This document shows, piece after piece, positions 36,856 through 51,425 of a stretch of 64,000 bases of DNA. The notes below the pieces were generated by a model. It did no database searches. It saw only the letters and a program-made list of their open reading frames with translations, and was not told where the DNA came from. The position numbers and the translations under genes were made by a program. The stretch is from an uncultured bacterium (GTDB lineage Bacteria; Hydrothermota; Hydrothermia; UBA1063; CAJXJZ01): assembly GCA_913055745.1 (NCBI GenBank), contig CAJXJZ010000002.1, positions 57,564 through 121,563 on the forward strand. Reading direction: 5' to 3'. Positions within the stretch are counted from its first letter, which is position 1; each line of letters starts with the position of its first letter.

Positions 36856-37950
36856 TTAGGTTTTCTTTTGAGTTTTTAATGTTATCTCTCCCTTTTTTAT
36901 TTCTTTCATAAGGCTCAAGAATGCATCATAAACGATTTCTGGCTTAAGTTCTTTAAGACATTTAAAATTAAGCCCCATAGGGCATGTAAGGGGCCTTGGC
37001 GAATAATAAAAACATGGGCTACATGGGAGGTTAAGCCTTGCAATCCTATGTGGCGTTTTCCATGGTGAAACCCATGTGGGATTTGTAGGTCCAAATATTC
37101 CCACAACGGGCAACCTTAGGGCTGATGCAAGGTGCATGAGGCCTGAATCATTGCTTATAAACGCATCCATATATTTCATAATTGAAGCAGTTTCGCGAAT
37201 GCTTTTTGTATCAACAATAATAGATTTTGTGCTGTTTTGAAGATTTTTGTGAATAAACTCTTTTAAAGGACGCTCTTCTGGACCTCCAAATATAAATATT
37301 ACCGCACTTTTATTGAATTCTCCAAGCATTTTACACAGTTTTACAAAATGTTCAAGTGGCCATCTTCTTTTATCGTGGTTTTTAAAAGAACTCGTTCCAG
37401 GATGTATACCTACTTTAAATGCATCCTTGTATGGTGCTATATATTCTGAACCAAAATGAAGTTCCTCTTGGGTTAAAAATAATTGCAGAGGATAAATCTT
37501 GGGTGATGTGATATTGAAAAACCTGAGTAGGTTGATGTTCTCTTCCACTACATGAAGAGAATAGTCTTCTTTTATTTGCCATGATTTCAAGAAATTAAAA
37601 TTTAATGGGCTGTTTTTAATGTATTTATGCCCTATGATCTTTTTGGGAAGGAGCATAAAAGCGAAAAGATTGTATTCTCTTCTATTAGAGGGATAGAAGT
37701 TAATGACCACATCAAATTTCCTTATATATTTTCGGATAAACATAAAGGTTTCAATTTTGCTCTTCTTAAGCATAGGAAAATAAACGATATCATCTATATA
37801 AGGGTTATTCAAAAGCACATCCCGTGTTGTGGGGAAAAAGGTAAAAACTGTTATGTTATAATCAGGGTATGTTTCCTTTAATACTCTGAGGGCAGGAGTG
37901 AACAAAAGTGTATCACCAATACCATACAAAGGGGATATTCCTATTTTCAT
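36856..37950 (-). CDS. Glycosyltransferase family 9 (LPS heptosyltransferase-like) with C-terminal Cys-rich tail
   Basis: GT9 N-terminal GIGDTLLFTPALRVLK and C-terminal HLASAL…PVVGIFGPT motifs; extra C-terminal CSPC…C…C segment. Confidence 0.7.
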   Translation of the reverse strand: MKIGISPLYGIGDTLLFTPALRVLKETYPDYNITVFTFFPTTRDVLLNNPYIDDIVYFPMLKKSKIETFMFIRKYIRKFDVVINFYPSNRREYNLFAFMLLPKKIIGHKYIKNSPLNFNFLKSWQIKEDYSLHVVEENINLLRFFNITSPKIYPLQLFLTQEELHFGSEYIAPYKDAFKVGIHPGTSSFKNHDKRRWPLEHFVKLCKMLGEFNKSAVIFIFGGPEERPLKEFIHKNLQNSTKSIIVDTKSIRETASIMKYMDAFISNDSGLMHLASALRLPVVGIFGPTNPTWVSPWKTPHRIARLNLPCSPCFYYSPRPLTCPMGLNFKCLKELKPEIVYDAFLSLMKEIKKGEITLKTQKKT

Positions 37951-38002
37951 GTATCCTAAAGTTTAAAACCAAATGTCCGAATTTTCAACTATAAGGTTAT
38001 GC

Positions 38003-38031
38003 TTGTTATTCCGCTTACTATAAATTATAAT
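38003..38031 (+). promoter_or_regulatory. Sigma70-like promoter TTGTTA-17-TATAAT for metG; predicts leaderless or near-leaderless transcript
   Basis: TTGTTA 38003-38008, 17-nt spacer, TATAAT 38026-38031; ATG at 38039 has no Shine-Dalgarno. Confidence 0.35.
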
Positions 38032-38038
38032 TTATCCT

Positions 38039-40021
38039 ATGAAAAAGATACTCGTAACATCTGCTCTACCTTATGCAAATGGTCCATTACATATAGGACA
38101 CATAGCAGGTGCTTATCTTCCTGCAGATATATACACAAGGTATCAGAAATTAAGGGGTCGTAATGCTATTCATATATGTGGAACGGATGAGCATGGTGTG
38201 GCTATTACCATAAGGGCGGACAGAGAGGGCAAAACGCCAAAAGAGATAGTGGACTTTTACCACGAAAGAATAAAAGAAGACTTTAGGCTAATGCGTATAG
38301 AGTTTGATAACTTCTCCCGTACCACTTTGCCACTTCACTATGAGACAGCCAAAGAGTTCTTTTTAAGACTGTACGAAAAGGGGTATATAAGTAAAAAAGA
38401 AACCGAGCAGTATTATTGCCCAAACTGTAAGAGATTCCTACCAGATAGATATGTAGAAGGGACATGCCCTTATTGTGGATATGAAAAGGCAAGAGGAGAC
38501 CAGTGCGATAACTGTGGTAGATGGCTTGAGCCAAAGGAACTTATAAATCCAAGGTGTGCCATTTGTGGCACGACTCCTGAACTGAGAAAGAGTTTCCATT
38601 ACTACTTGCTTTTAAGCAAACTAGCGCCTAAACTTAAAGCATATCTTGATACAAAAAAGTCTTATTGGAAGCCCGAGGTTATAGGACTTGCTCTTTCCTG
38701 GATAAGGGAAGGACTAAAGGATAGGGCTATTACAAGGGACCTTAGTTGGGGAGTACCTGTGCCATTAAAAGAGGCTCAAGGAAAAGTCCTCTATGTGTGG
38801 TTTGATGCACCCATAGGGTATATATCCTCCACCAAGGAGTGGGCCATTAAAAAAGGAGATCCAGACCTTTGGAAAGAATGGTGGCAAGACAAAGAAAATA
38901 CAAAACTCGTGCATTTTATAGGAAAGGATAATATTGTTTTTCATGCTTTAGTTTGGCCTTCTATGCTCCTGGGACATGGCGATTATGTTCTTCCAGACAA
39001 TGTGCCAGCCAACTACTATCTCAATCTTGAGGGTTCAAAGATTTCAACTTCAAGAAATTGGGCTATATGGATAGGTGACCTTGCCAGGCTTTATCCAGCA
39101 GATTATATTAGATTTGCTCTTACCTACTCAATGCCAGAAACGAAAGATTCCGACTTTACTTTTGCAGATTTTAAAGAAAGGATAAACAATGAACTTGTCA
39201 ATAACTTTGGCAATTTTGTAAATAGAACTTTGAGTTTCATAGTAAAGTATCTTAAAGGAAGAGTAGGACCACTTACAGATAAAGGAAGTGGGGAAGATGC
39301 CCATATACTCTCTCTTGTGGAAAAAGCACCTTATGAGCTCGGTAATCTCATTGATACATATAATTTTAGGAAAGGCCTGAAATATATCATGGAACTTTCT
39401 GCCAGTGGAAACAGGTATTTTGATAAGATGGCTCCATGGATAAGTAGAAAACAAGACCTAAATCGCACAAAGAGAACGCTTTCTGTATGTTATGCCCTCA
39501 TTCGTACGCTTTCTGTTTTAATAGAACCTTACCTTCCAGATTCGGCACAAAAAATAAGAAAGATGATAAAGAGCAACCTGCGCAATTGGGAAAAGGCAGC
39601 AGATTGGAGCATTCCAACAGAGATTGAGATAGAAAGGCCAGAAGTCCTTTATAAAAAGGTAGAAGAAGAAAAGATAGAGATTAAGGAGGAAAAGATGGAT
39701 TATATAACATTTGATGAATTCAAAAAACTCATTATTAAAATAGGAAGTATAAAAAATGCTGAAAAAGTTGAAGGTGCTGATAAACTATTAAAATTAACTG
39801 TAGATTTAGGTGATAAGGAAATTACCCTTGCGGCCGGTATAGCAGAATACTATGAGCCATCAGAACTTATTGGTAAACAGATACCTGTATTAGTAAATCT
39901 TGAGCCCAAGAAAATAAGGGGTATTTTATCACAGGGTATGATGCTTGCTGCAGATGAGAAGGGACGCCCTATACTATTGCACCCTGAGAAAGAGGTGAGG
40001 CCTGGCTCAAAGGTGCGCTAA
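38039..40021 (+). CDS. metG: Methionyl-tRNA synthetase with C-terminal tRNA-binding (EMAP/Trbp111-like) domain
   Basis: HIGH (PYANGPLHIGH), KMSKS-equivalent (KISTS), zinc knuckle CPNC…CPYC…CDNC…CAIC, C-terminal OB-fold; 660 aa. Confidence 0.95.
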   Translation: MKKILVTSALPYANGPLHIGHIAGAYLPADIYTRYQKLRGRNAIHICGTDEHGVAITIRADREGKTPKEIVDFYHERIKEDFRLMRIEFDNFSRTTLPLHYETAKEFFLRLYEKGYISKKETEQYYCPNCKRFLPDRYVEGTCPYCGYEKARGDQCDNCGRWLEPKELINPRCAICGTTPELRKSFHYYLLLSKLAPKLKAYLDTKKSYWKPEVIGLALSWIREGLKDRAITRDLSWGVPVPLKEAQGKVLYVWFDAPIGYISSTKEWAIKKGDPDLWKEWWQDKENTKLVHFIGKDNIVFHALVWPSMLLGHGDYVLPDNVPANYYLNLEGSKISTSRNWAIWIGDLARLYPADYIRFALTYSMPETKDSDFTFADFKERINNELVNNFGNFVNRTLSFIVKYLKGRVGPLTDKGSGEDAHILSLVEKAPYELGNLIDTYNFRKGLKYIMELSASGNRYFDKMAPWISRKQDLNRTKRTLSVCYALIRTLSVLIEPYLPDSAQKIRKMIKSNLRNWEKAADWSIPTEIEIERPEVLYKKVEEEKIEIKEEKMDYITFDEFKKLIIKIGSIKNAEKVEGADKLLKLTVDLGDKEITLAAGIAEYYEPSELIGKQIPVLVNLEPKKIRGILSQGMMLAADEKGRPILLHPEKEVRPGSKVR

Positions 40022-40024
40022 CTC

Positions 40025-40915
40025 TTGAAAAAGAGCAGCCTATTCGTCATATTTTTTTTAAGTGTAGTAAGTTGTAGTCATAAAAGTCCTGTAAAAGAGA
40101 GCAAAGACCTTGTAAAAAAAGGTGAGTACAAAAAGGCAATAAAGTATATAAGAGAGGTATCAAAAGAGACATCTTATTCAGAGCAGGATGAGTTAAATAT
40201 CTTGCTGGGCATAAGCTATTTGAGGACAAGGAAATATGGAAAAGCAAAGGACATACTATTTTCTTTGTCTCCCAAGAGCGCGAGCCTTAAAAAACTTCTG
40301 AGTAAAGCACTTTTAGAATTGGGAGATAGCGCAAGGAAGATTGGTTATACAAAGATGGCAGAGCAGTCTTATGAGATAGCCCTCGTTAATGACCCCGAAA
40401 TAAAACTCGGAAGGCGTTACTTATTACTCATAAATCAGTCATATGGGATGGGTGATTGTGAACTTGTTGTGCGGTTTTCTGATAAGTATATTGGTGAGAC
40501 ACAAGATACCCAGAGTGTTTTTACAAAATATGTAGAATGCCTTTATGAAGATGGAGAATGGGACAAAATTGACTCCCTCAAAGAGTATTTTATATCCCAT
40601 AGGCGCATAGATGATTTGGGATGGGCATTGGGAGACGCCCTATACAATATTGCTGTATCTAAACTAAGTATGGGTTTTGTAGAAGATGCAAAAGATGTGC
40701 TTCTTGAATTTACAACTAAGATAAGGTCTCCTCACATATTAATGGATGATGCGTATTTTCTACTTGGAGGTATATATGAGGAGATGGGATATCCTGATAG
40801 TGCTCTTTCTATGTACTATAAATGTATGAAAGAGAGTTTAACGAATAGATCACCTCTTTATAAAGCATCCACTAGCAAGGTTAAGGCATTGAAAGATGAG
40901 ATGGGCCTTCATTAG
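40025..40915 (+). CDS. TPR-repeat lipoprotein
   Basis: Lipobox FFLSVVSC after TTG start; helical TPR-like repeats; 296 aa. Confidence 0.5.
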   Translation: MKKSSLFVIFFLSVVSCSHKSPVKESKDLVKKGEYKKAIKYIREVSKETSYSEQDELNILLGISYLRTRKYGKAKDILFSLSPKSASLKKLLSKALLELGDSARKIGYTKMAEQSYEIALVNDPEIKLGRRYLLLINQSYGMGDCELVVRFSDKYIGETQDTQSVFTKYVECLYEDGEWDKIDSLKEYFISHRRIDDLGWALGDALYNIAVSKLSMGFVEDAKDVLLEFTTKIRSPHILMDDAYFLLGGIYEEMGYPDSALSMYYKCMKESLTNRSPLYKASTSKVKALKDEMGLH

Positions 40916-40969
40916 TCTAACATTTGTGCTTTTTTTTTAGGTTGTCATAGAGAAGGAAAAAGGCCACTT

Positions 40970-42484
40970 TTGCCCACAGAGAATAAAAAGTCCCTTGATT
41001 CTTTACTCCTTGACCTTTCAAAAAAGTATTATAAGAGCGAAAAGAAGGCACGAGGTGCGCTTTTTGTACGGGTTGACTTGCAAGAAAGAAAAAAGATAAA
41101 TATTGTTTTGAAAGGTGCCGCTTTGATAAAGGATGCACGAGGTAATGTGATAAAGTTAAGTAACAAGAGTTTCAGTTTTATATATGATGGTAATGGAAAA
41201 GAGGATATGTTGTATTATGCTATCCTTCTTATATCTTCTGATAGACATGAGGCGATGGGTTTAGCAAATACTTATGAAAGAGAGGGTTATAACATAAAGG
41301 TTAAAGAGAGAAAAATTGGCAATCTCCCAGTGCAGTACATCTTGTATACAGGACCATTTAAATGCATGAAAGACCTTAGAGAAAAGTCGCCATCTCTTGT
41401 AATAAAGGTTGTAAAGCAAATAGGAAATGCAATGGATACTCCTTTGTTATTTGTTATAGATGGAAAGAAATATACACTATATGGAAGGATAAAGATAAAA
41501 AACAGTGGTATAATTACATTAAAAGGCGTAAATAATTCAAATGACCTATATTCTGGAGCCACCTCATCAACTATTATTAAGAGAGATGTAGAGATTATCC
41601 CATTACAATCAAAACTTAGGATAGTATCTTGTATGCCTATTGAAGAATATGTACTCGGTGTGGTTAAATCAGAGATAGGTGAGGATGCGCCCCATGAAGC
41701 AAAAAAGGCTCAAGCAGTGGCAGCAAGAACAAACATTATAAGAAGATTATGGAACAGTTCTGGGTTTTCCGACTATGATATTAAAAGCGATGTATTTTCA
41801 CAAGTGTACAATGGTTCTGAAGATTATAGCAAGGAAACAAAGAGGGCTGTTGTTGAGACATCAGGCAAGATACTGACTTATGATGGAAAGCCCATAGAGG
41901 CATTGTTCCATGCCATGTGTGGAGGGCATACAGAGAATTCAGAGAATGTATGGTCTTCATATGTGCCTTATTTAAGAGGGGTTCTTGATGAGGGTAAAGG
42001 GCATAGAAGTTTTCCATTGAGCAATGAAAAGATGGTAAGAAGATGGATAGATGCCAGTCCTGACGTGAATTGTAAAAAATATGGTGGAAGGTACTGGCGA
42101 TGGCAATTTAAATACACACCTTCGCAACTTGGCCACATAGTCAGCGTAAAAACAGGTAAGTACATAGGAAAAGTGATAGATATAAAGGTTTTAGAAAGGG
42201 GGATCTCAGGTAGGGCAAAGAAGATAGAAATTTTAGGGACTCTTGGTTATGTAGTGGTAAATAAAGACCTTGATATAAGAAGAGCGCTTTCCTGGACATC
42301 ACTTCCATCTTCCCTCTTTTATGTCAAAAAACACGCTGGCAACTTTATAATTATTGGTAGGGGTTTTGGTCATGGCGTTGGTATGTGTCAGATTGGTGCT
42401 ATGGGTATGGCAGATAAGGGATATGACTATAAAGCAATATTAAAACACTATTACAAAGATGTCAAGCTGGAAAAGATATATTGA
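40970..42484 (+). CDS. SpoIID/LytB-domain protein (peptidoglycan-associated)
   Basis: Central SpoIID-like region (…VAARTNIIRRLWN…EALFHAMCGGHTENSENVW…); 504 aa; start uncertain. Confidence 0.65.
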   Translation: MPTENKKSLDSLLLDLSKKYYKSEKKARGALFVRVDLQERKKINIVLKGAALIKDARGNVIKLSNKSFSFIYDGNGKEDMLYYAILLISSDRHEAMGLANTYEREGYNIKVKERKIGNLPVQYILYTGPFKCMKDLREKSPSLVIKVVKQIGNAMDTPLLFVIDGKKYTLYGRIKIKNSGIITLKGVNNSNDLYSGATSSTIIKRDVEIIPLQSKLRIVSCMPIEEYVLGVVKSEIGEDAPHEAKKAQAVAARTNIIRRLWNSSGFSDYDIKSDVFSQVYNGSEDYSKETKRAVVETSGKILTYDGKPIEALFHAMCGGHTENSENVWSSYVPYLRGVLDEGKGHRSFPLSNEKMVRRWIDASPDVNCKKYGGRYWRWQFKYTPSQLGHIVSVKTGKYIGKVIDIKVLERGISGRAKKIEILGTLGYVVVNKDLDIRRALSWTSLPSSLFYVKKHAGNFIIIGRGFGHGVGMCQIGAMGMADKGYDYKAILKHYYKDVKLEKIY

Positions 42485-43541
42485 GTATCTTAGAAAGACA
42501 GCAAGGGTAGATGGAGCGTATCTTGCATCCTCAGAATATATCCCATATAAAAGGGTATGGCTTAGAGATCACTCTATGATAAGTTATCTCCTCCTCCAAA
42601 TGGGGTATGATATACAATCTGAAATAAACTGGATTTCTACATTACTTGCCAAAGAGCATAATAAAGTAAAAAGAATATTATCCATACCAAAAGAAAGTCC
42701 AGAATTTTATAAAGATGAAAACCATCCGAGAGCGAGATATTCAGCCAAAATGCAAAGATATAATGAAGATTGGCTTGAGCGGCAGTATGATGGTATTGCG
42801 TTATCTATGTTATTACTTATTGAATATCATCTACGTTCTGGTGGTAAAATACCCTCTTTTTTAAAAGACTATCTTGACTATCTTTTTTATGTTTATGATA
42901 CTCCGTGTGCATCCTTATGGGAAATGCACGAAGAGTATCTTCATGCATACACTGTAGGTCTTATAGCCTACACATTAGAAAGGGCTTCTCTAATTTATCC
43001 AGGTTTTTTAGAAAAATCAGAGTATGTAAAAGACTTTTTCTTTTCACGGTTTCTCGTAAATAATGAGATAAAGGCTATGACGAATCTTAGAAAATATGGT
43101 ACATGTTCATCTGTTTTACTCTTAATTACGCGATTTGATATATTTAAAAACAAGGTATCTTTAAAAGACCACATTTTTGACAAAATCCAGGAGAAACTCT
43201 CTCCCTGTGGTATTGGATTATACAGGTTTATCATAGAGGAGAAAAATGAGAAGGATACATATTTTGGCGGAAATCTTTGGTATATTACCACTTACTGGAA
43301 GGCAAATTATCTATTGAATAAAAGGCGTCTTCGGGAAGCTCAGGATATACTGTCCTGGTATGTTGATTTTCCACTTGGAGAACAGATTAAGGATACAAGG
43401 TATATCTTAGATAAGAACATGTATTATTGGTGGATTGAAAAAAGCAAGAAGGAAAACAATGGTATCCCCGGGCCTGCGAGTGCACTATCTTGGAGTATTG
43501 CTGAGAGGGCTTTTCTTGAGTATAAGATGGAAAATCTATGA
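42459..43541 (+). CDS. Glycoside hydrolase family 15-like (alpha/alpha)6-barrel protein
   Basis: GH15 signatures YKRVWLRDHS (YxxxWxRD) and LWEMHEEY (LWEE-type catalytic Glu); 360 aa. Confidence 0.5.
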   Translation: MSSWKRYIEYLRKTARVDGAYLASSEYIPYKRVWLRDHSMISYLLLQMGYDIQSEINWISTLLAKEHNKVKRILSIPKESPEFYKDENHPRARYSAKMQRYNEDWLERQYDGIALSMLLLIEYHLRSGGKIPSFLKDYLDYLFYVYDTPCASLWEMHEEYLHAYTVGLIAYTLERASLIYPGFLEKSEYVKDFFFSRFLVNNEIKAMTNLRKYGTCSSVLLLITRFDIFKNKVSLKDHIFDKIQEKLSPCGIGLYRFIIEEKNEKDTYFGGNLWYITTYWKANYLLNKRRLREAQDILSWYVDFPLGEQIKDTRYILDKNMYYWWIEKSKKENNGIPGPASALSWSIAERAFLEYKMENL

Positions 43542-44648
43542 AGAGGGTCATAGTCATTGTTATCATATTCAGGTTATATGACCTTTTGTTACCTTACATG
43601 CTTTCAAAAACTTCTCTCCCATTTAATAAAACAGTGTATCTTTCTATATTTCACTGGCCTTCTTTTGATGTAATAAACGCTGAATCTTATTACAAAACCT
43701 TTGATAGCCAACATTATCTCTATCTTTCAGAAAAATGGTATACCAAATATCCATCACAGCATAATGCCTTTTTCCCTCTCCTTCCATTTTTATCAAAATC
43801 TTTTCATTTTTTACTAAGTCTTATTTTTGGTCAGGGATGATTTTTGTAAACATTATCTCTTTGTTAGGCCTTTATTTGTTTTATATTTACTTGGACACTG
43901 ATGAACAAAAAAAGGTGCCGGTTTTTTGCTTCTATTAACTTTCCCATATTCTTTCTTTTTTAGCCGTATATATACTGAATCCCTCTTTTTCCTGTTGATT
44001 TTGCTTTTGATGTATGGGTTCAAAAGGGGCATAAAATGCCTTATTTTCATTGCATCCCTTTTATTGCCACTTTCAAGACCACAAGGGGTGATAATAGGCT
44101 TAGCAGTTTTTTTCATGTATATTTTTGAAAAGAAAAGGCGTAAGTTGTTTGTTTTGAGTTTTTTGGGGTTTTTAATGGGAAGTGTCTTATATCTTTTGAT
44201 TATGTACTTTTCTACAGGGGATATATTAGCAGCACTACATGCACAGAGTTTATATCCAAGAGTAAATCCTATTAAAATGCTTATAAATCCATATAGATGG
44301 CTAAAAGAAAACTTTATCTATCCTTCATATGCCCTTAGGTATCTCGGCATTGGTAATTTTATTAATGAGCGTATCATATTTTTGTTTTTCTTGTTGACCT
44401 TGATTTTTGGAAAAAAATACCTTTTATTGGGCGAGTACATATTGCTTATAACGTTGGGCCTTTTTTCGGCACTAACTGACCATTTTATGTCATTTTCAAG
44501 GTTTCTTTTGCCTTTATTCCCTTTTTATATTGTCCTGTGGGGCATGCTGAGAAATAAAAAAATTTTGTATTATCTTGTTCTGACGTTTTTTGTTATTGAT
44601 CATTTTTTACTTTTAACATTACATTCTCTATCTTATTTTGTTGGATAA
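43538..44648 (+). pseudogene. PIG-V-like (GT76) polytopic mannosyltransferase split by two frameshifts (frames 2 -> 1 -> 0); possible pseudogene or homopolymer sequencing errors
   Basis: ORF 43538-43840 carries the PIG-V-family-like motif HNAFFPLLPFL. Frame +1 is open 43801-43935 and encodes a TM helix (MIFVNIISLLGLYLFYIYL). ORF 43926-44648 continues as a multi-TM protein. Frame junctions coincide with the T6 run at 43806-43811 and the A7 (43907-43913) and T6 (43922-43927) runs. Confidence 0.5.
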
Positions 44649-44650
44649 AA

Positions 44651-44675
44651 AACCGCCTTTTAAGGCGGGTTTTTT
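44651..44675. terminator. Bidirectional rho-independent terminator between convergent genes
   Basis: aaaaaaCCGCCTTttAAGGCGGgtttttta: 7-bp GC-rich stem, flanked by A-run and T-run; T-run overlaps stop codon of minus-strand gene. Confidence 0.6.
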
Positions 44676-47520
44676 ATTTGGGTCTTGTTATAACTATTGG
44701 TTTGTATGCGGTTTTATGTGTTCCATCAGGCATTAACATGTCAATTTTTACTATATAATATCCTATGGGTACTGTTTTACCCTTTGCATCATCAAGTCTC
44801 CACTCGGCATTCTGGGGTCCCATCCTCCTTGCTCCATATATATCTTTTATGAGATTACCCCTTACATCGTATATTTTAAGTGAATAACTGCCATCCTGTG
44901 GGCCTTGTACATTAATAGTGCAAAAGCCCTCAGAAGTTTTATCTACCACATTTGGACTTACGGATAATGCCAGTTTTTCTGAGGTTTGGGCAGAGCGTTT
45001 TTCAATATCACTTTGGAATCTTGGTAGGACCTGGTATCCATCTGTATATGGAGCCTCGTCATCGTATTGCCCTGCTATACCCCGTATCTTCACCATATCA
45101 CCCTTTCTTAAAGAAGATACATCAATACCTGTCGTCTTATAAACATAAACGGTAATAGGTGCTGTACCGTTCCAAACAATCATGTTATACCCAGAGCCCT
45201 GAACATACGGTGAGTTGTCCAAAACACCTTCAAAACTCACTAAGGCGCCCTCAATGCTTTCCCATATACCATGTGATTTGCCTATATCTATGGGTTGTGG
45301 GGGGCTTGTGTGACCTACATAAACTATGTCATCCTCACTTTCTGGCACTATTTCAGTAAGGCCATTGTATTCTGTTACAGTGCCTTTTACAATAACAACA
45401 TCTCCTGTATCAAAACTCTGAATAGGTGAGTGATAAAATACCTCAATACCAGAGGAGTCATCCTGTATCCAGAGGTTCGTCTTAGTAGTGGAAAATTTGG
45501 CATTGGGCCCTACCACGATACCACCAACGGTGAAGGTCTTACCTGTATCTTCTGGTGTTACACCATCTTCACCAGGTTTTTGTACTTCAGAAATTGGCGT
45601 TGTGACATATAGTCTAAATGGGCTTTGTAACATTTCTTGAAGGTGTAGAGTATCTGTTTCTGATGTTTTCACAGTTATCTGAAGCGTTCCCTCTGTATCT
45701 GGTGCAATGATGTTAACACCCACCTTAACAGTGTCTTTTGTGAAGTTGTATAGAGTTAAATGGTAGTACTGGTCTATGGTGTAACTTGCACCTAAAACTG
45801 TAATACTGCTTGTGTCCGCCCATGTATCAAAGAAAAATCTTGCAGCATTTAGATTGGATAGGTCTTTTGTTAGTAAGAATGTAACATGCGTATTATCACC
45901 TTTATGAAGATAAGGAGGTTGTATTGAGAGTTTTCCAGAGCCATCTCCTGCTGCATTTATATCCCGAATGCCCCTTGGAACTATTTGATATCCTTCAAAA
46001 TATCCGTTGCTTGAGTCAGGATCGTATTGTGAGATTACACCTTTTATGGTCATCTCACCTCGGGGAATGGGCTTTCCCACAAGGTCACAAGATGGGTCAA
46101 CATATAGGGTATAACTTCCGGTCCCATCAGAAATGGGTATTGTAGAGCCCGATTGAAAACTTGTAGATGTTGTTGTAACATGGTTGATTTCAACAAACAT
46201 CCCCTCATACGCTTCACCACCCTGGGCAAGAGCCTCGCATGTTGTAACCCTGGGATAAACATTGTGCCCTGGGTCCTGGTATAAGAGGGTAGCATTGTCA
46301 AGCTCAACTACGCCGTTGTATTCAGTTACATACCCTGTAATAATAACACTGTCTCCTTGCAAAGGTGGAGTTACAGGGTCGTATAATACAACACCTCCTG
46401 TATTATCCTGCATATAGTATTTCTTACCAAAATCACCTGCAACAGTTACTATCCCCTGTATCTTAACGGTTTGACCAATAAATACTGAATGTCCCATCTC
46501 ATCAAGTATATGAAGGTATGAAATGGGTATGATCCTATCCCCGGGATTTACTAAGTATTTAGAGATACTTGAAACAGTTTCTGCATTATGGGTATCTTTT
46601 ACCTTGAGTTTAAAATATACATTGCTATTCTCTGGATATCTGGGTATGTAGTAAACATAAAAACTGTCATTTTCTATGTGGTTTAATGTATCAGAGCCAC
46701 TAAGTATTGAAATAGCTGTGTCAATAGTCTGAAAACTATCAAGTGAGACAAAGAGCGTATCAGAAGTTATACTATCCTGTGCATCCCTATCTACAACCTT
46801 ATATTTTACCTCAACCATTTCATCAGATGCTGGCAATTTTGGTGAGAATGAAATGAGATTGACAAATGGTGGGGTATTCATAGTATCTAATTCAACATCC
46901 TGTGCATTCCTGGGCTCAATCCTATAGTTTCCATAGGCATAATAGATTGTCCCAGTTATATTGTATTTTTCTCCAACCTGTATGCCAGTGGCTGACCATC
47001 CAAGGTCATCCACCATTAAACTATCTGTACCATCATTTACATACCATTCACCAAAAGTGTCAGGTAGAGAGGTACATATTGCGTGCTGAACTTTTACAAA
47101 AACGCCTTCAAATGCCTCATTGTTTAAACTATCACAGGTTGCTATATAGGGCTCAGGTAGTGATACACCACTTGCAAGGATATTCACTGTGTCGCCATGA
47201 AGTTCTGTAAGCCCCCTGTATTCTTCTACAAGACCTGTAACCTCAACGCTATCTCCCACTGAAACGGTGGGATTTACGCCGGTATAGACAAACACTCCAT
47301 GCCATGGGCCTGAGGCTGGATATTTTTCTTCTAATGTGAAGCCTTTTACCTTTGTATTTACATATACACCTGTCACCACTCCGTATGTGGTTATAGTTGA
47401 ATCTGCGTACGGTGATGCTGATGTGTGCCCTTGGAGTTCTTCTATTGTAATTACCTGCGCTGCATTTGCAAAGCCTATTGCAAAAAACACCAAAGCAATG
47501 TATTTAAGATAACGCATCAA
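44674..47520 (-). CDS. Large secreted repeat protein (948 aa): signal peptide, >=3 tandem OB-fold-like modules (YhcR/extracellular-nuclease-type), C-terminal T9SS-type sorting domain
   Basis: Signal peptide MMRYLKYIALVFFAIGFANA. Three repeats share the pattern G-V-VTGVY…GF-LQD/EE…GD-V-VTG-V-EY-GLTEL…EG-FV. C-terminal ~80 aa beta-sandwich (SYSLKIYDVRGNLI…YIVKI). Confidence 0.6.
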   Translation of the reverse strand: MMRYLKYIALVFFAIGFANAAQVITIEELQGHTSASPYADSTITTYGVVTGVYVNTKVKGFTLEEKYPASGPWHGVFVYTGVNPTVSVGDSVEVTGLVEEYRGLTELHGDTVNILASGVSLPEPYIATCDSLNNEAFEGVFVKVQHAICTSLPDTFGEWYVNDGTDSLMVDDLGWSATGIQVGEKYNITGTIYYAYGNYRIEPRNAQDVELDTMNTPPFVNLISFSPKLPASDEMVEVKYKVVDRDAQDSITSDTLFVSLDSFQTIDTAISILSGSDTLNHIENDSFYVYYIPRYPENSNVYFKLKVKDTHNAETVSSISKYLVNPGDRIIPISYLHILDEMGHSVFIGQTVKIQGIVTVAGDFGKKYYMQDNTGGVVLYDPVTPPLQGDSVIITGYVTEYNGVVELDNATLLYQDPGHNVYPRVTTCEALAQGGEAYEGMFVEINHVTTTSTSFQSGSTIPISDGTGSYTLYVDPSCDLVGKPIPRGEMTIKGVISQYDPDSSNGYFEGYQIVPRGIRDINAAGDGSGKLSIQPPYLHKGDNTHVTFLLTKDLSNLNAARFFFDTWADTSSITVLGASYTIDQYYHLTLYNFTKDTVKVGVNIIAPDTEGTLQITVKTSETDTLHLQEMLQSPFRLYVTTPISEVQKPGEDGVTPEDTGKTFTVGGIVVGPNAKFSTTKTNLWIQDDSSGIEVFYHSPIQSFDTGDVVIVKGTVTEYNGLTEIVPESEDDIVYVGHTSPPQPIDIGKSHGIWESIEGALVSFEGVLDNSPYVQGSGYNMIVWNGTAPITVYVYKTTGIDVSSLRKGDMVKIRGIAGQYDDEAPYTDGYQVLPRFQSDIEKRSAQTSEKLALSVSPNVVDKTSEGFCTINVQGPQDGSYSLKIYDVRGNLIKDIYGARRMGPQNAEWRLDDAKGKTVPIGYYIVKIDMLMPDGTHKTAYKPIVITRPK

Positions 47521-49031
47521 TTATGCCTCCTTTTCCTTAGTGTATAAAAATTATTATACACCAAAAATACAAGGACAATCAAGAAAGAGATAAATACTAT
47601 AACATCCCCAATATCTGTATAGATAGTATTTCTCTTTACAAGAGGTACATCGCATGTGATAAGCCCTTTTGTGAAAAGAGGAAGTTTTTTTAGGACCTTA
47701 CCCTCAGGGGAGATTATACATGATACACCAGTCTTTGCAGAACGTACCACATACCTTCCTGTTTCAACGGCTAAAAGACGAGACATTTGAAAATGTTCTA
47801 AAGGGCCATTTGATTTACCAAACCAACCATCGTTTGTTATAACAAAGAGTATTTTTGCACCCATTTTTGCGAGTTTTCTTGCAATTTCTGGGAATATGGA
47901 CTCAAAGCAAATGAGTATGCCCATTTTATGATTATTAAAATCTACGGTTTTTATCCTACCAGGCCAAAAATCACCCCATCCTAAGTTTATTTTATTAAGT
48001 GGAGAGGGCAATTTATCTTGATATGGCAGCCATTCACCAAAGGGCACAAGATGATGTTTGTCGTATAGGTCAACAACATGACCGTGGCTAAAGAGCATGG
48101 CAGTGTTAAAAATCCTATATGTTCCATTCTGATTCCTCTTGTCCTGTGTGCCAAATAATATGCTTGCACCTGTAATATGCTCAATCTCTTCTATCAATTT
48201 CTGTGCTCTAAATGAATAGCGGAAATAGCCAGGGATTGCAGATTCAGAGAGCACAATAAGTTGAACAGAGTAAGGTTTTATCTTTTTTGAAAGGTATATG
48301 AGGGAGTCTCTTGTTTGTAACCACTCCTTAGGGTCATAGATATTCTTGGGAAGTATGTTGGGTTGAAGTATCCCTATTCTTATGTGTTCTTTTGATTGCT
48401 CTTTCAATCTTTTAAGATTCATTTTAAGAATATTTCCGGTGAGTATTACTATAAAGAGCAGGATAGCAGTGCTCCATATATGTTTTTTATTAGGTCTTTC
48501 CCATACGATATAAAACAGATATCCAGTTAGCACTATAATAAAGGATATGAAATAGGGACCTAAGAAGGATGCAAGAGACAATATGGTAGTGCTTTCTAAT
48601 TGAGAATAGTACAGGTTCATCCAGGGAAAGCCCAATGGGCCTTGTGATTTAATATATTCAAGGATAACCCAGAGAGAGGGAATAAAAATGAACCCCCATT
48701 CTTTGTCAAGGTATTTTTTTACTCCTATGAGGAAGATGGCAGGATACAAAGAGAGATATAGGGGAAGAAGTAAAAGGCCCATGATAAGATATTTTTCAAC
48801 GCCTGGTTCTGTTTGGAGATGCAGAATCCAGAATGTGTGAAAGGCATAGAAGGGATAGAAAAGCAAGAGTCCTTTTAGAAAGATCTTTGTATCACAGTGT
48901 TTTAAAAACAGAAAGAGTATAAAAAATGAGATAGGTGCAAACAGGTAAATATTAAAGGGATAAAAAGAAGAAAGGTATAAAATCACAAAAAGGACAGCCA
49001 AAAATAGGCTGCCCTTTTTAATCTTTGGCAT
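47517..49031 (-). CDS. lnt: Apolipoprotein N-acyltransferase
   Basis: N-terminal multi-TM domain + CN-hydrolase domain with E-K-C triad (…LSESAIPGY…; CFESIFPE); 504 aa. Confidence 0.85.
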   Translation of the reverse strand: MPKIKKGSLFLAVLFVILYLSSFYPFNIYLFAPISFFILFLFLKHCDTKIFLKGLLLFYPFYAFHTFWILHLQTEPGVEKYLIMGLLLLPLYLSLYPAIFLIGVKKYLDKEWGFIFIPSLWVILEYIKSQGPLGFPWMNLYYSQLESTTILSLASFLGPYFISFIIVLTGYLFYIVWERPNKKHIWSTAILLFIVILTGNILKMNLKRLKEQSKEHIRIGILQPNILPKNIYDPKEWLQTRDSLIYLSKKIKPYSVQLIVLSESAIPGYFRYSFRAQKLIEEIEHITGASILFGTQDKRNQNGTYRIFNTAMLFSHGHVVDLYDKHHLVPFGEWLPYQDKLPSPLNKINLGWGDFWPGRIKTVDFNNHKMGILICFESIFPEIARKLAKMGAKILFVITNDGWFGKSNGPLEHFQMSRLLAVETGRYVVRSAKTGVSCIISPEGKVLKKLPLFTKGLITCDVPLVKRNTIYTDIGDVIVFISFLIVLVFLVYNNFYTLRKRRHN

Positions 49032-49038
49032 CCTATAT

Positions 49039-50037
49039 TTATTTAAGATCTTGCTCTTTCAATAAATCTCCAGAGAAGTCAGCCTCTTTAAGGAGTATTT
49101 CTGCATCCAACATCTTTCCTGTGGCTTTTTGAATCTCGGACGGATCAATTTCATAAGATTTTCTAAACTCTGGCAACTTAATATTTACATCCTCTTTCTT
49201 TACACCGACCTTAGCAATTACAGAATCTATATCAAAATATTCGTTTGCAATTTGCAAGGCTTTGTCTGGATTATTCCTTATAAAATCAATGGCTTTTGTT
49301 ATTGCCTTTAGTATTCTCTTTGTAGGTTCAGGGAAAAACTGCATATTTGCCTGGGATGTATACCCTGCACTTAAAATAAATGGTGCAGATACATAATTTT
49401 CAAGGAATCCATCTTCTGTTACCTTGAGTTTTTTAGATGCGGCAAGGATCTGTGCCTCTGGGGTTCTGGCAATGAGATAATCAACATTTTTGTCAAAGAG
49501 CGATGTTAATACTTCAGTTTGTGATTGTGGCAGTGTTTTTACCTTTGTAGGATCTCCTCCGGCATTTTTTACTATATACTGTACCCACCTATTGTCCTTT
49601 GTCCTTGAATAGTATCCAATGCGTTTTCCTTCAAGGCTCTTTATGCCTCTGTATCTTGTGTCTCTCTGCGTGATAAGTTTGGTCTGAGGATTGTCAACAG
49701 ATGCTACTGTGGCATAAATTATTTTAAATGCTTCTGGTTTAATGGCTCCTTTGTATGCAAACATCTCCATACTGGTTCCGAAAGCGGCCTGCGCTGAGCC
49801 ATTTCTGACTGCATCTACTTCATCACCATTGATACCAGCTTCAACCATGTCAACCTTCACTTTGAGGGAATCAAAGTATCCCTCTTTTTCTGCTACAAAT
49901 AAGGGGAGTGCACTTATATCTTTTACATATAGAACCTTTCCTTCCACCTCTTTTTTTGACTTTATCACAGGATATTCTATTACAAAAACCAAAACGGCTG
50001 CAAGTATTATATCTATTATAGCAAGCAATGCTCTCAT
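49039..50037 (-). CDS. Periplasmic substrate-binding protein (NMT1/SsuA/TauA-like ABC transporter SBP)
   Basis: N-terminal membrane anchor/signal, two-lobe SBP pattern; 332 aa; no cognate permease/ATPase adjacent. Confidence 0.5.
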   Translation of the reverse strand: MRALLAIIDIILAAVLVFVIEYPVIKSKKEVEGKVLYVKDISALPLFVAEKEGYFDSLKVKVDMVEAGINGDEVDAVRNGSAQAAFGTSMEMFAYKGAIKPEAFKIIYATVASVDNPQTKLITQRDTRYRGIKSLEGKRIGYYSRTKDNRWVQYIVKNAGGDPTKVKTLPQSQTEVLTSLFDKNVDYLIARTPEAQILAASKKLKVTEDGFLENYVSAPFILSAGYTSQANMQFFPEPTKRILKAITKAIDFIRNNPDKALQIANEYFDIDSVIAKVGVKKEDVNIKLPEFRKSYEIDPSEIQKATGKMLDAEILLKEADFSGDLLKEQDLK

Positions 50038-50087
50038 CTATATCCTCCTTTGCGTTTATTATACACTATAATCGCTGTTAATAAAAG

Positions 50088-51425
50088 TTAAAGAGTCCAT
50101 TCTGTTTTATCACGACCATCCTTAACTTTGATTCCAAGTTTGTTAAGTTCATTTCTAATCATATCAGCATAAGCAAACTGTTTATCCCGGCGGAGTGCAT
50201 TTCGCACTTTTAATATAACTTCCATAATCTTATCAAGTTTTTCGGATGTTTTACTTTCTTTTGGTTCAAAACCCAAGACTTTTAAAAGGAAGGCTGGCGT
50301 ATGTGGGTCTTCTGGATGTTCTTTTATATATGAAAATATCTTTCCTATGGCCTTTGGTGTATTTAGGTCTTCATCCATGTGTTTTTCAAACTCAGATATA
50401 AGTTCTGCATTGAGTGTGGTATTTTGATAAAAATGGGCTTTGTGCATTGTATTTTCCAACTTTTTCCATGCCTCTTCAGTGCTTTTTAAAAACTCCTCTG
50501 TGTAATCCATAGGCGATCTATAGTGTTTTTGCAGGACAAACAGTCTTACTGTGTTTGGGTCGTATTCTTTTAATATGTCTTCTATAGCGAAGAATAGTCC
50601 TGTTGATTTGGACATCTTTTCCCCTTTAATCTGCATAAAACCAATATGTACCCAGTAGTTTACAAACTTTTTACCATAAGCTGCTTCAGACTGTGCAATT
50701 TCATCCTCATGATGAGGAAAGATAAGGTCCTGCCCTCCCATATGAATATCAAAGGGCTGACCGAGAAAATGGGTTGACATAGCAGAGCATTCAATATGCC
50801 ATCCTGGTCTTCCCTTACCCCACGGTGAATACCAGTATGGTTCTCCCTCTTTGTGTTGTTTCCAGAGGGCAAAATCAAATGGATTTTTCTTTTCTGGATC
50901 AGGCTCTACTCTTGCTCCTTCTTTGAGCTCATCCAGTTTCTTTCCAGAGAGTTTGCCATAGCCTTCAAATTTTGACACATCAAAATATACATTTTTTGAG
51001 GGCGTTAGATAAGCGTATCCTTTCTCTAACAGGATATTGACCAGTTCAATGATTTCTTGAATGAACTGCGTGGCTCTGGGAAAATGGTTAGCCTTCTTTA
51101 TATTGAGTTTTGATGCAGCAGAAAGATACTCATCTGTGTATCTATGACCTATATCACGCCAATCTGTTCCTTCACTATGCATTTTTTCAATGATTTTATC
51201 GTCTATATCAGTAAAATTTTGTACATAGTCAACATGATAACCTCTGTATTCTAAATACCTTCTAAGTACATCACCCACAAGGAAACTCCTTATGTGACCC
51301 AGATGTGGCCTATCCTGAACAGTCATACCGCACATGTATATGCCAACCTTGTCCCTTTTTATGGGCTTAAACTCTTCTACCTTTCGTGTTAATGTATTAT
51401 AGAGTTTCATATCATTAGCTTTCAC
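50088..51425 (-). CDS. cysS: Cysteinyl-tRNA synthetase
   Basis: HIGH (PHLGHIRSF), zinc-binding CGMT…C…, KMSKS; 445 aa. Confidence 0.95.
   Translation of the reverse strand: MKANDMKLYNTLTRKVEEFKPIKRDKVGIYMCGMTVQDRPHLGHIRSFLVGDVLRRYLEYRGYHVDYVQNFTDIDDKIIEKMHSEGTDWRDIGHRYTDEYLSAASKLNIKKANHFPRATQFIQEIIELVNILLEKGYAYLTPSKNVYFDVSKFEGYGKLSGKKLDELKEGARVEPDPEKKNPFDFALWKQHKEGEPYWYSPWGKGRPGWHIECSAMSTHFLGQPFDIHMGGQDLIFPHHEDEIAQSEAAYGKKFVNYWVHIGFMQIKGEKMSKSTGLFFAIEDILKEYDPNTVRLFVLQKHYRSPMDYTEEFLKSTEEAWKKLENTMHKAHFYQNTTLNAELISEFEKHMDEDLNTPKAIGKIFSYIKEHPEDPHTPAFLLKVLGFEPKESKTSEKLDKIMEVILKVRNALRRDKQFAYADMIRNELNKLGIKVKDGRDKTEWTL

Follow-up and report, generated by a model that had tools for sequence, protein, structure and literature searches.

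A single gene for a membrane glycosyltransferase of the GT-C fold, 370 codons long and read in three successive frames, was found in the window, by which we mean the whole 64-kb (64,000-nucleotide) stretch of DNA that was analyzed (Table 1). Judged from its sequence, the locus very probably represents a young and genuine loss-of-function allele of this 370-aa enzyme in a bacterium of candidate division WOR-3, whose product would no longer be active. The gene measures 1111 nt and becomes a stop-free ORF of 1113 nt (370 codons plus the stop) once a T is inserted at both of two sites. The original prediction had proposed one glycosyltransferase gene with two 1-nt homopolymer frameshifts, to be checked against orthologs, and this was borne out by relatives that carry a single continuous 370-aa ORF, rather than separate genes, in the same gene order.

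Table 1. Coordinates of the glycosyltransferase (GT) locus and its surroundings within the window.
Feature	Position	Strand	Basis or content
GH15-like gene, 360 aa	42459..43541	+	Intact in the window; adjoins the 5' side of the GT gene
Whole frameshifted GT-C glycosyltransferase gene (null allele)	43538..44648	+	Ortholog alignment, repaired ORF, synteny
100-aa ORF, frame 2	43538..43840	+	Residues 1-84/85 authentic
Frameshift 1, T5 run	43787..43791	+	Ortholog alignment and intact same-species alleles
Middle segment, frame 1	43792..43926	+	Authentic residues 86-130, IKIFSFFTKSYFWSGMIFVN...DEQKKVPVF
GG dinucleotide, third strain-specific frameshift	43914..43915	+	One G missing in same-species contigs L007 and L008
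Frameshift 2, T6 run	43922..43927	+	Intact same-species alleles
240-aa ORF, frame 0	43926..44648	+	Authentic residues 131-370, remaining transmembrane helices
Bidirectional intrinsic-terminator hairpin	44653..44668	.	CCGCC-TTTTAA-GGCGG, A and T runs on both sides

The three pieces described earlier, namely the 100-aa ORF with HNAFFPLLPFL, the open stretch in frame 1 and the 240-aa ORF in frame 0, were all re-found in the sequence. In its authentic part, the 100-aa ORF encodes TM1 followed by the first extracytoplasmic loop; D56 (invariant, in KTFDSQHY) and the NAFFPLLPF motif both belong to this part. The final ~15 residues of the ORF (SKSFHFLLSLIFGQG) are out-of-frame read-through. Frame 1 is free of stops until 43936-43938 and encodes MIFVNIISLLGLYLFYIYL, and the middle segment corresponds to one long helix and the start of the next in the predicted model. 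Further disruptions of the 240-aa ORF were observed in none of the contigs compared. Translation from the native start stops after 100 aa, so TM1 and the first extracytoplasmic loop with Asp56 are separated from the other helices. No second copy (paralog) of the gene was found within the 64-kb window.

The strongest support for a single ancestral gene came from relatives. The three-frame reconstruction aligned to intact proteins of 370-372 aa with E-values of 1e-131 to 1e-148, over 100% of the reconstruction's own length and without gaps, and such ungapped full-length matches mean that the single-gene reading is not due to chance. Four intact orthologs with gap-free alignments were identified among proteins (P0001, P0002, P0004, P0005), and in sister species of WOR-3 an intact ortholog of 370 aa is present at 59-64% identity, again gap-free and with identical synteny; one genomic contig (L010) reached 64% identity to the reconstruction over residues 1-370. 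The shared gene order runs MetRS-TPR-SpoIID-GH15-GT, followed on the opposite strand by a 948-aa gene, Lnt, NMT1 and CysRS. Relatives thus have, at the syntenic position, one uninterrupted ORF that is collinear with the window gene, as expected if the latter is a pseudogene, and the comparison shows the ancestral state to be a single ORF overlapping the upstream GH15-like gene by ATGA. Among the orthologs compared there was no relative with a split gene, and a collection of 5.8 billion proteins contained no intact sequence above 90% identity to the reconstruction. A scan of genome contigs with the single protein found nothing, while a search of the same kind with the alignment of close orthologs found one WOR-3 MAG.

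We also observed the gene in contigs from the same species. Four of these (L001, L007, L008, L009), 98.5-99.4% identical to the window, carried a broken copy in every case; they derive from a minimum of four further samples, their assemblies are of SPAdes, MEGAHIT and JGI origin, and each shows 11-108 SNPs relative to the window. Two further short contigs, L011 (JGI 3300011013) and L013 (ENA ERZ27248471), read T6 at site 1, GG at the dinucleotide and T7 at site 2 and remain in frame as far as codon 160 (L011) and codon 145 (L013). These two contigs cover codons 1-160 and 1-145 of the gene, and they point to a same-species allele that would be intact over its whole length. Both samples also hold broken contigs, with the in-frame and broken copies on different SNP haplotypes. 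A further contig, L015 (ERZ27251151), retains the GH15-like gene and ends at 43578, upstream of both frameshift sites, and is uninformative for the glycosyltransferase.

Comparison of these alleles placed the lesions precisely. Both lesions in the window are single-T deletions, from T6 to T5 at site 1 and from T7 to T6 at site 2. At site 1, T6 was observed in L011, L013 and L007, a mosaic of both haplotypes, the ortholog L002 reads TTTTTTAA, and the intact alleles read PFF|IKIFSFF; at site 2, L011 and L013 have T7 and each of the five null contigs has T6, with the intact alleles reading VPVF|LLLLTFP. In the orthologs the tracts are interrupted at the frameshift positions, e.g. CTTTCTC at site 2. 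The junctions proposed originally lay at two T6 runs and an A7 run. The T6 run at 43922-43927 was correct in both position and role, while the other T6 run lies at 43807-43812 rather than 43806-43811 and is about 20 nt away from the true site 1. The A7 run was correctly positioned (43907-43913) and is uninvolved. Both of these dismissed runs are the same in intact and null alleles.

Tract length was linked to the surrounding SNPs at both sites. At site 1, T6 occurred with a block of six SNPs in three of three contigs and T5 with the alternative block in four of four. At site 2, T7 occurred with 43893A, 43932T and 43937G in two of two contigs, and T6 with the alternative, null-type states (43893G, 43932C, 43937A) in five of five. 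This linkage is drawn from a small sample of seven contigs, which are metagenome consensus sequences in which minor tract variants are invisible.

Sequencing or assembly indels, i.e. homopolymer under-calls in a gene that is in fact intact, had been offered as one explanation of the broken frame. Single-nucleotide losses in T runs are a typical error mode of some platforms, and both lesions are of this type. An artefact nevertheless appears exceedingly improbable, given that the same gene is broken in the four SNP-differing contigs from other samples and assemblers, and that T6 and T7 were called at the same sites in other contigs from two of those samples, so the pipelines were able to resolve these tracts. 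The remainder of the window contains ~55 other ORFs, all intact, despite 582 homopolymer runs of at least 5 nt. With five broken contigs, and intact contigs from two of the same samples, the disruptions are not assembly errors. A decaying pseudogene, another of the explanations put forward at the outset, gains support from these real lesions in several contigs.

Surface glycosyltransferases are classic phase-variable genes, and the third explanation offered was reversible on/off switching of an envelope glycosyltransferase by slipped-strand mispairing at the T tracts. In its favor, tract lengths differ among near-identical strains (T5/T6 at site 1, T6/T7 at site 2), and the JGI 3300011013 and ERZ27248471 samples each hold in-frame and broken alleles. 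We nonetheless consider phase variation quite unlikely. Homopolymeric contingency loci are reported (Moxon, Bayliss and Hood) to run typically to ~8 nt or more, whereas the tracts here are 5-7 nt and are interrupted in the orthologs; nor are they special in the window, where 203 runs reach at least 6 nt. Restoring expression would require two tracts, and in L008 three lesions, all to revert, and site 2 is in the OFF state in all five broken contigs. In contigs from several samples, tract state is also perfectly linked to SNPs at distances of 5-110 nt, so the alleles are stably inherited haplotypes. In two strains the null state is accompanied by an irreversible 935-bp deletion in the partner gene. 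Programmed recoding, in which two -1 ribosomal frameshifts or transcriptional slippage (one added U per run) would produce the full-length enzyme, could draw on the fact that both U-rich sites call for one type of correction (+1 nt or a -1 shift), that P-site slippage is possible, and that the corrected product is exactly the ancestral protein. In the incoming frame, however, both sites lack the canonical heptamer X XXY YYZ (A UUU UUA at site 1, GUU UUU UGC at site 2), and no downstream structure was evident (fold z-scores of -0.31 and -0.69); an Rfam scan also found no family at either frameshift site. No ortholog has the frameshifts, nor do the intact alleles of the same species, the extra G deletion in L007 and L008 would defeat such a program, and two successive events of low efficiency would leave negligible product, making recoding scarcely credible.

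The 100-aa, 33-aa and 240-aa ORFs might instead be translated separately, by re-initiation or coupling, with their products coming together as an active enzyme. Coupling-like signals were observed at the pieces: the stop of the first ORF overlaps the ATG of the 33-aa ORF (ATGA, 43837-43840), and AAGGTG lies 8 nt upstream of a TTG start at 43926. The C-terminal 240 codons are free of stops in all contigs. Against a split functional gene, AAGGTG simply encodes K-K-V in the intact allele and no longer exists in L007 and L008, the boundaries between pieces fall within predicted helices 81-93 and 123-135, and the 15 residues that end the first ORF are out of frame. The split arrangement is found in no relative, and the partner GH15 gene is itself being deleted, a loss which indicates that the module is dispensable. 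We regard a split functional gene as highly improbable, and the loss-of-function allele remains our preferred reading.

The family of the intact protein was examined by structure and by profile searches. The AF2 model (pLDDT 94.8, pTM 0.93) has a multi-spanning membrane GT-C fold, and its best Foldseek matches are all GT-C enzymes, with sequence identities to solved structures of 7-14%. Relatives compared included ALG12/ALG9 (GT22), AglB/STT3/PglB (GT66), PIG-M (GT50), Pmt (GT39), ArnT (GT83) and PimE; unlike these, the window protein is small (370 aa) and has no soluble periplasmic domain. GT-C enzymes have as their hallmark an acidic motif directly behind TM1, within the first extracytoplasmic loop (PMC6801728). 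In keeping with this, D56 is invariant in 43 homologs and lies in the loop following model helix 2-23. No match was found when PDB sequences were searched with a profile of the 43-member family.

The protein had been described as PIG-V-like (GT76). The resemblance held, since an EL1 signature, (T/K)(W/F)DxxHY...NAFFPLxP, is shared with PIG-V / Gpi18 (PF04188 Mannosyl_trans2, CAZy GT76), but membership in GT76 was not established and the protein itself has no Pfam match. Neither the pieces nor two reconstructions matched any Pfam model at E <= 1, including PF04188 and PMT_2 (PF13231), nor did the four closest orthologs match any. Sixteen of the 43 homologs match PF04188 (best E-value 1.2e-12); these are more distant homologs and include ones found at E-values of 1e-38 to 1e-20. 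More homologs, 23 of the 43, match PMT_2 (best E-value 3.2e-8). A GPI-anchor pathway is not known from bacteria, which excludes PIG-V's own biochemical role for this protein. The best curated model was NCBIfam NF046093 (AZOBR_p60025 family cell-surface glycopolymer formation protein), matched by 23 of the 43 homologs and by the window protein at an E-value of 5.9e-9 over residues 40-212, a span that includes both frameshift sites. Its score of 32.6-35.5 bits is below the cut-off of 150, and the window protein is thus not a member. Our search found no literature on the AZOBR_p60025 family. On the outer face of the cytoplasmic membrane, the intact enzyme would take a sugar from a polyprenyl-phosphate donor and attach it to an acceptor of the envelope, and a carrier of the null allele would be expected to go without that envelope sugar modification.

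The upstream GH15-like gene appears to have shared the fate of the glycosyltransferase. Its stop overlaps the glycosyltransferase start (ATGA), and because of this overlap the two genes are probably co-translated. A stretch of 935 bp of the GH15-like gene (42536-43470) is deleted in the null-allele contigs L007 and L008. The pairing itself was not observed in distant homologs, with no Pfam GH15 gene in the 5-kb flanks of P0013, P0021 and P0012; the 375-aa neighbor upstream of P0013 is unrelated to the GH15-like gene. The T deletion at site 2 was presumably the earliest lesion, because it is common to all null contigs. Secondary decay of a two-gene module that was no longer needed would then account for the T lost at site 1, the missing G at 43914 and the 935 bp deleted from GH15.

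Several observations bear on the age of the allele. A comparison of the repaired null allele with the intact one across 160 codons gave seven synonymous and three conservative codon differences. The ratio of unique substitutions between the window and L002 was 1.4 for the glycosyltransferase protein and 1.3-3.6 for seven neighboring genes, and the protein branch in the window is not accelerated. All seven residues that are invariant across the 43 homologs are kept. Because the differences are mainly synonymous and the protein branch is unaccelerated, these comparisons of sequence indicate that inactivation was recent. Within the null gene we observed 0-1 SNPs per 1.1 kb, compared with 0.4-1.9% in the flanks; this low density is unlike that of a long-neutral pseudogene and fits a recent origin or spread. 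It could also be a hint of selection.

The null haplotype might be viewed not as neutral debris but as the outcome of selection for losing a surface-glycan module (GH15-like plus GT-C), kept as a balanced polymorphism and spread from one strain background to another by short recombination tracts, a reading that we consider rather unlikely. The setting would be hydrothermal WOR-3 populations in which the null haplotype occurs alongside the intact one, and an example of a cause would be escape from a phage or predator recognizing the glycan. The mosaic structure of L007 and the low SNP diversity of the null gene are left compatible with it.

As a recent loss-of-function allele, the locus resembles homopolymer-frameshift pseudogenes and segregating loss-of-function alleles of surface-polysaccharide genes. 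It shares with them 1-nt deletions in short A/T runs, several secondary lesions, the deletion of a partner gene and the coexistence of intact and null haplotypes in natural populations. Unlike those known alleles, it is known solely from metagenome consensus contigs of an uncultured WOR-3 lineage. It is an ordinary young pseudogene and reveals no new mechanism. Two "hypothetical proteins" already deposited for the MAG, one of 100 aa (cluster P0065) and one of 240 aa (cluster P0003), are fragments of a single inactivated GT-C glycosyltransferase, and both warrant annotation as a pseudogene. The locus also offers a clean, small case in which strains of an uncultured phylum have lost an envelope-modification module, with intact, broken and recombinant haplotypes all recoverable from public metagenomes. 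Downstream, the terminator hairpin separates the convergent glycosyltransferase and 948-aa genes, and the sub-threshold Rfam matches near the glycosyltransferase gene all fell on this hairpin.

A three-frame reconstruction of the glycosyltransferase (GT) protein was used as query against 5.8 billion proteins, and four intact proteins of 370-372 aa matched it at 59-63% identity and 100% coverage (E = 1e-131 to 1e-148). The window's own deposited 240-aa piece (P0003) was also recovered. Alignments of the reconstruction to the orthologs were gap-free across both junctions, and the orthologs shared the gene order of the window (MetRS, TPR, SpoIID, GH15-like and GT, with the 948-aa gene, Lnt, NMT1 and CysRS on the opposite strand), including the ATGA overlap between the GH15-like and GT genes. 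Another intact ortholog, with 64% identity over residues 1-370, was observed in a MAG titled 'candidate division WOR-3 bacterium', from which we infer that the window belongs to the WOR-3 lineage. Judged from these sequence comparisons, window 43538-44648 is one gene rather than three, as the original prediction of a single interrupted glycosyltransferase gene had held.

All three reading frames and the named sequence features of that prediction were found in the window, with the A7 run (43907-43913) and the second T6 run at the coordinates it gave, while its other T6 run lies at 43807-43812, one base from where it had been placed. Protein and DNA alignments to the orthologs moved the first junction from this run to a T5 run about 20 nt farther upstream. 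Each frameshift was a one-base loss, and adding one T to each run restored an ORF of 1113 nt (370 codons) with no internal stop and a length equal to that of the orthologs. Translation of the null allele ends after 100 aa, so that TM1 and the catalytic loop are no longer joined to the other helices.

Features of the GT gene and its downstream neighbour (window positions)
Feature	Position	Strand	Remark
100-aa ORF	43538-43840	+	contains HNAFFPLLPFL
Frameshift 1 (site 1)	T5 run 43787-43791	+	between PF(L/F) and IKIF
Open stretch in next frame	stop 43936-43938	+	encodes MIFVNIISLLGLYLFYIYL
Frameshift 2 (site 2)	T6 run 43922-43927	+	between VPVF and LLLLTFP
240-aa ORF	43926-44648	+	
948-aa protein	44674-47520	-	conserved in all relatives

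An ATGA stop/start overlap (43837-43840) connects the 100-aa ORF with a 33-aa ORF, and a Shine-Dalgarno-like AAGGTG was observed 8 nt 5' of the TTG that starts the 240-aa ORF (43912-43928). The fragments could be translated from these signals; most likely, the signals are coincidental, because the same bases encode K-K-V in the intact allele.

Seven contigs of the same species, with 98.2-99.4% identity to the window, were found by exact-sequence look-ups and one DNA-pattern scan. Both frameshift sites were read in frame in L011 and L013, and their protein was the inferred reconstruction except for F85 and three conservative substitutions; these contigs thus show the ancestral states at both sites directly. 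Two samples (JGI 3300011013 and ERZ27248471) contained intact as well as null alleles.

Alleles in the window and in same-species contigs from other metagenome assemblies
Contig	Source	Site 1	43914-15	Site 2	GH15-like gene	GT gene
Window	NCBI/ENA MAG	T5	GG	T6	present	null
L001	ENA ERZ1742225, SPAdes	T5	GG	T6	present	null
L009	JGI 3300011013	T5	GG	T6	not covered	null
L008	ERZ27248471	T5	G	T6	935 bp deleted	null
L007	ERZ27251151	T6	G	T6	935 bp deleted	null
L011	JGI 3300011013	T6	GG	T7	present	in frame to codon 160
L013	ERZ27248471	T6	GG	T7	present	in frame to codon 145
L015	ERZ27251151	not covered (ends at 43578)	not covered	not covered	present	

In this WOR-3 bacterium, two single-T deletions have turned a GT-C glycosyltransferase gene into a genuine pseudogene that is young and segregating. 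Decay was among the options originally proposed, and it was borne out by the lesions shared among null contigs, the intact alleles and the GH15 deletion. The pseudogene adds one more example to a well-known phenomenon; its chief practical value is an annotation fix for two deposited 'hypothetical proteins', and the GT/GH15 locus provides a small case of an envelope-modification module lost at strain level.

Sequencing or assembly indels, another of the proposed options, were excluded since the contigs came from several assemblers and were separated from one another by SNPs, the same pipelines called both T6 and T7 elsewhere, and about 55 other ORFs of the window were intact despite 582 homopolymers of at least 5 nt. 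Phase-variable expression, in which T-tract slippage would toggle the gene, was disfavoured by the linkage of tract length to flanking SNPs at both sites. The T6 state of site 1 was linked to 43679A, 43681C, 43708T, 43742T, 43744T and 43756G in 3/3 contigs and T5 to the alternative SNP block in 4/4, while at site 2 T7 was linked to 43893A, 43932T and 43937G in 2/2 contigs and T6 to the alternatives in 5/5. The tracts are also short and ordinary for such an AT-rich genome, reversion would require two or three lesions to be repaired simultaneously, and in two strains the null state goes together with an irreversible loss of most of the partner gene. L007 was a mosaic, in which an intact-type 5' block including T6 precedes null-type 3' sequence. 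This arrangement points to recombination and not to tract switching, probably through exchange of a short homologous tract within the pseudogene. On this linkage pattern, the null state is a stable allele, not a switch. Programmed frameshifting, by which the ribosome would bridge the frames, was unsupported: neither an X XXY YYZ heptamer nor downstream structure (z = -0.31 and -0.69) was found at the sites, Rfam gave no match there, and the shifts were conserved neither in the orthologs nor in the intact alleles. The intact-type block of L007 (window 43679-43791) is no shorter than 108 nt, comprises six SNPs and the site 1 T6, and is identical to the haplotype of L011 and L013; the rest of the gene is null-type.

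Ten of 160 codons differed between the repaired null and intact alleles, seven synonymously and three conservatively (I9L, A48T, T69S). The ratio of unique substitutions in the GT protein, window versus the sister-species ortholog (L002), was 1.4, compared with 1.3-3.6 for seven neighbouring genes, so the window branch showed no acceleration, and all seven residues invariant across 43 homologs were kept (7/7). Because the differences were mostly synonymous, the branch unaccelerated and the invariant residues retained, purifying selection must have acted on the gene until recently. The most parsimonious order would begin with T7 to T6 at site 2, since this deletion is common to all null contigs; T6 to T5 at site 1, the G deletion and the GH15 deletion would then be secondary decay. 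Within the broken gene, the window and L001 differed by 1 SNP per 1111 nt, against 0.4-1.9% in eight neighbouring genes (flanks 37926-50649), and L008 showed zero SNPs to the window. Such a low density would not be expected of a neutral pseudogene, and the null haplotype may have arisen or spread very recently.

Most of the upstream GH15-like gene (window 42536-43470) was missing from L007 and L008. This presence/absence polymorphism swaps 935 bp for a 30-nt filler (L007 5540-5569; L008 about 1018-1047). The gene was kept in the short contigs L013 and L015, from the same two ENA samples as L008 and L007, respectively; L015 stops upstream of both frameshift sites. At the locus of a more distant homolog (P0013), a 363-375-aa protein with no Pfam family (L016 3860-4987, L017 3896-4987) is encoded upstream of the GT gene. 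This protein is unrelated to the GH15-like gene, and the GH15-GT pairing is therefore confined to the close WOR-3 clade.

A confident AF2 model of the GT protein (pLDDT 94.8, pTM 0.93) contained about 11 long helices. D56, in the loop following TM1, was invariant among the 43 homologs and matches the acidic motif in the first loop that is the hallmark of GT-C enzymes (PMC6801728). No Pfam model matched the protein itself, while PMT_2 was found in 23/43 homologs and PF04188 (PIG-V) in 16/43; the PIG-V resemblance originally noted thus stands, and the GT76 membership is unsupported. Among curated models the best match, to the 'cell surface glycopolymer formation protein' family NCBIfam NF046093, scored 35.5 bits, below the 150-bit cut-off. 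A GPI role is implausible in a bacterium, and the intact enzyme likely moves a sugar from a polyprenyl-phosphate donor onto an envelope acceptor.

A perfect bidirectional terminator hairpin (44653-44668) lies between the convergent GT and 948-aa genes. It drew sub-threshold Rfam matches to Leu_leader (30 bits), Phe_leader and RNAI, which are probably mere terminator resemblance. The window differed from all other contigs at 44660 and 44661 in the hairpin loop and at 44667 in the stem base. The 948-aa protein, with an OB-fold (tRNA_anti-codon), DUF5689 and a weak C-terminal FlgD_ig-like domain, may be a secreted or surface nuclease-like protein.
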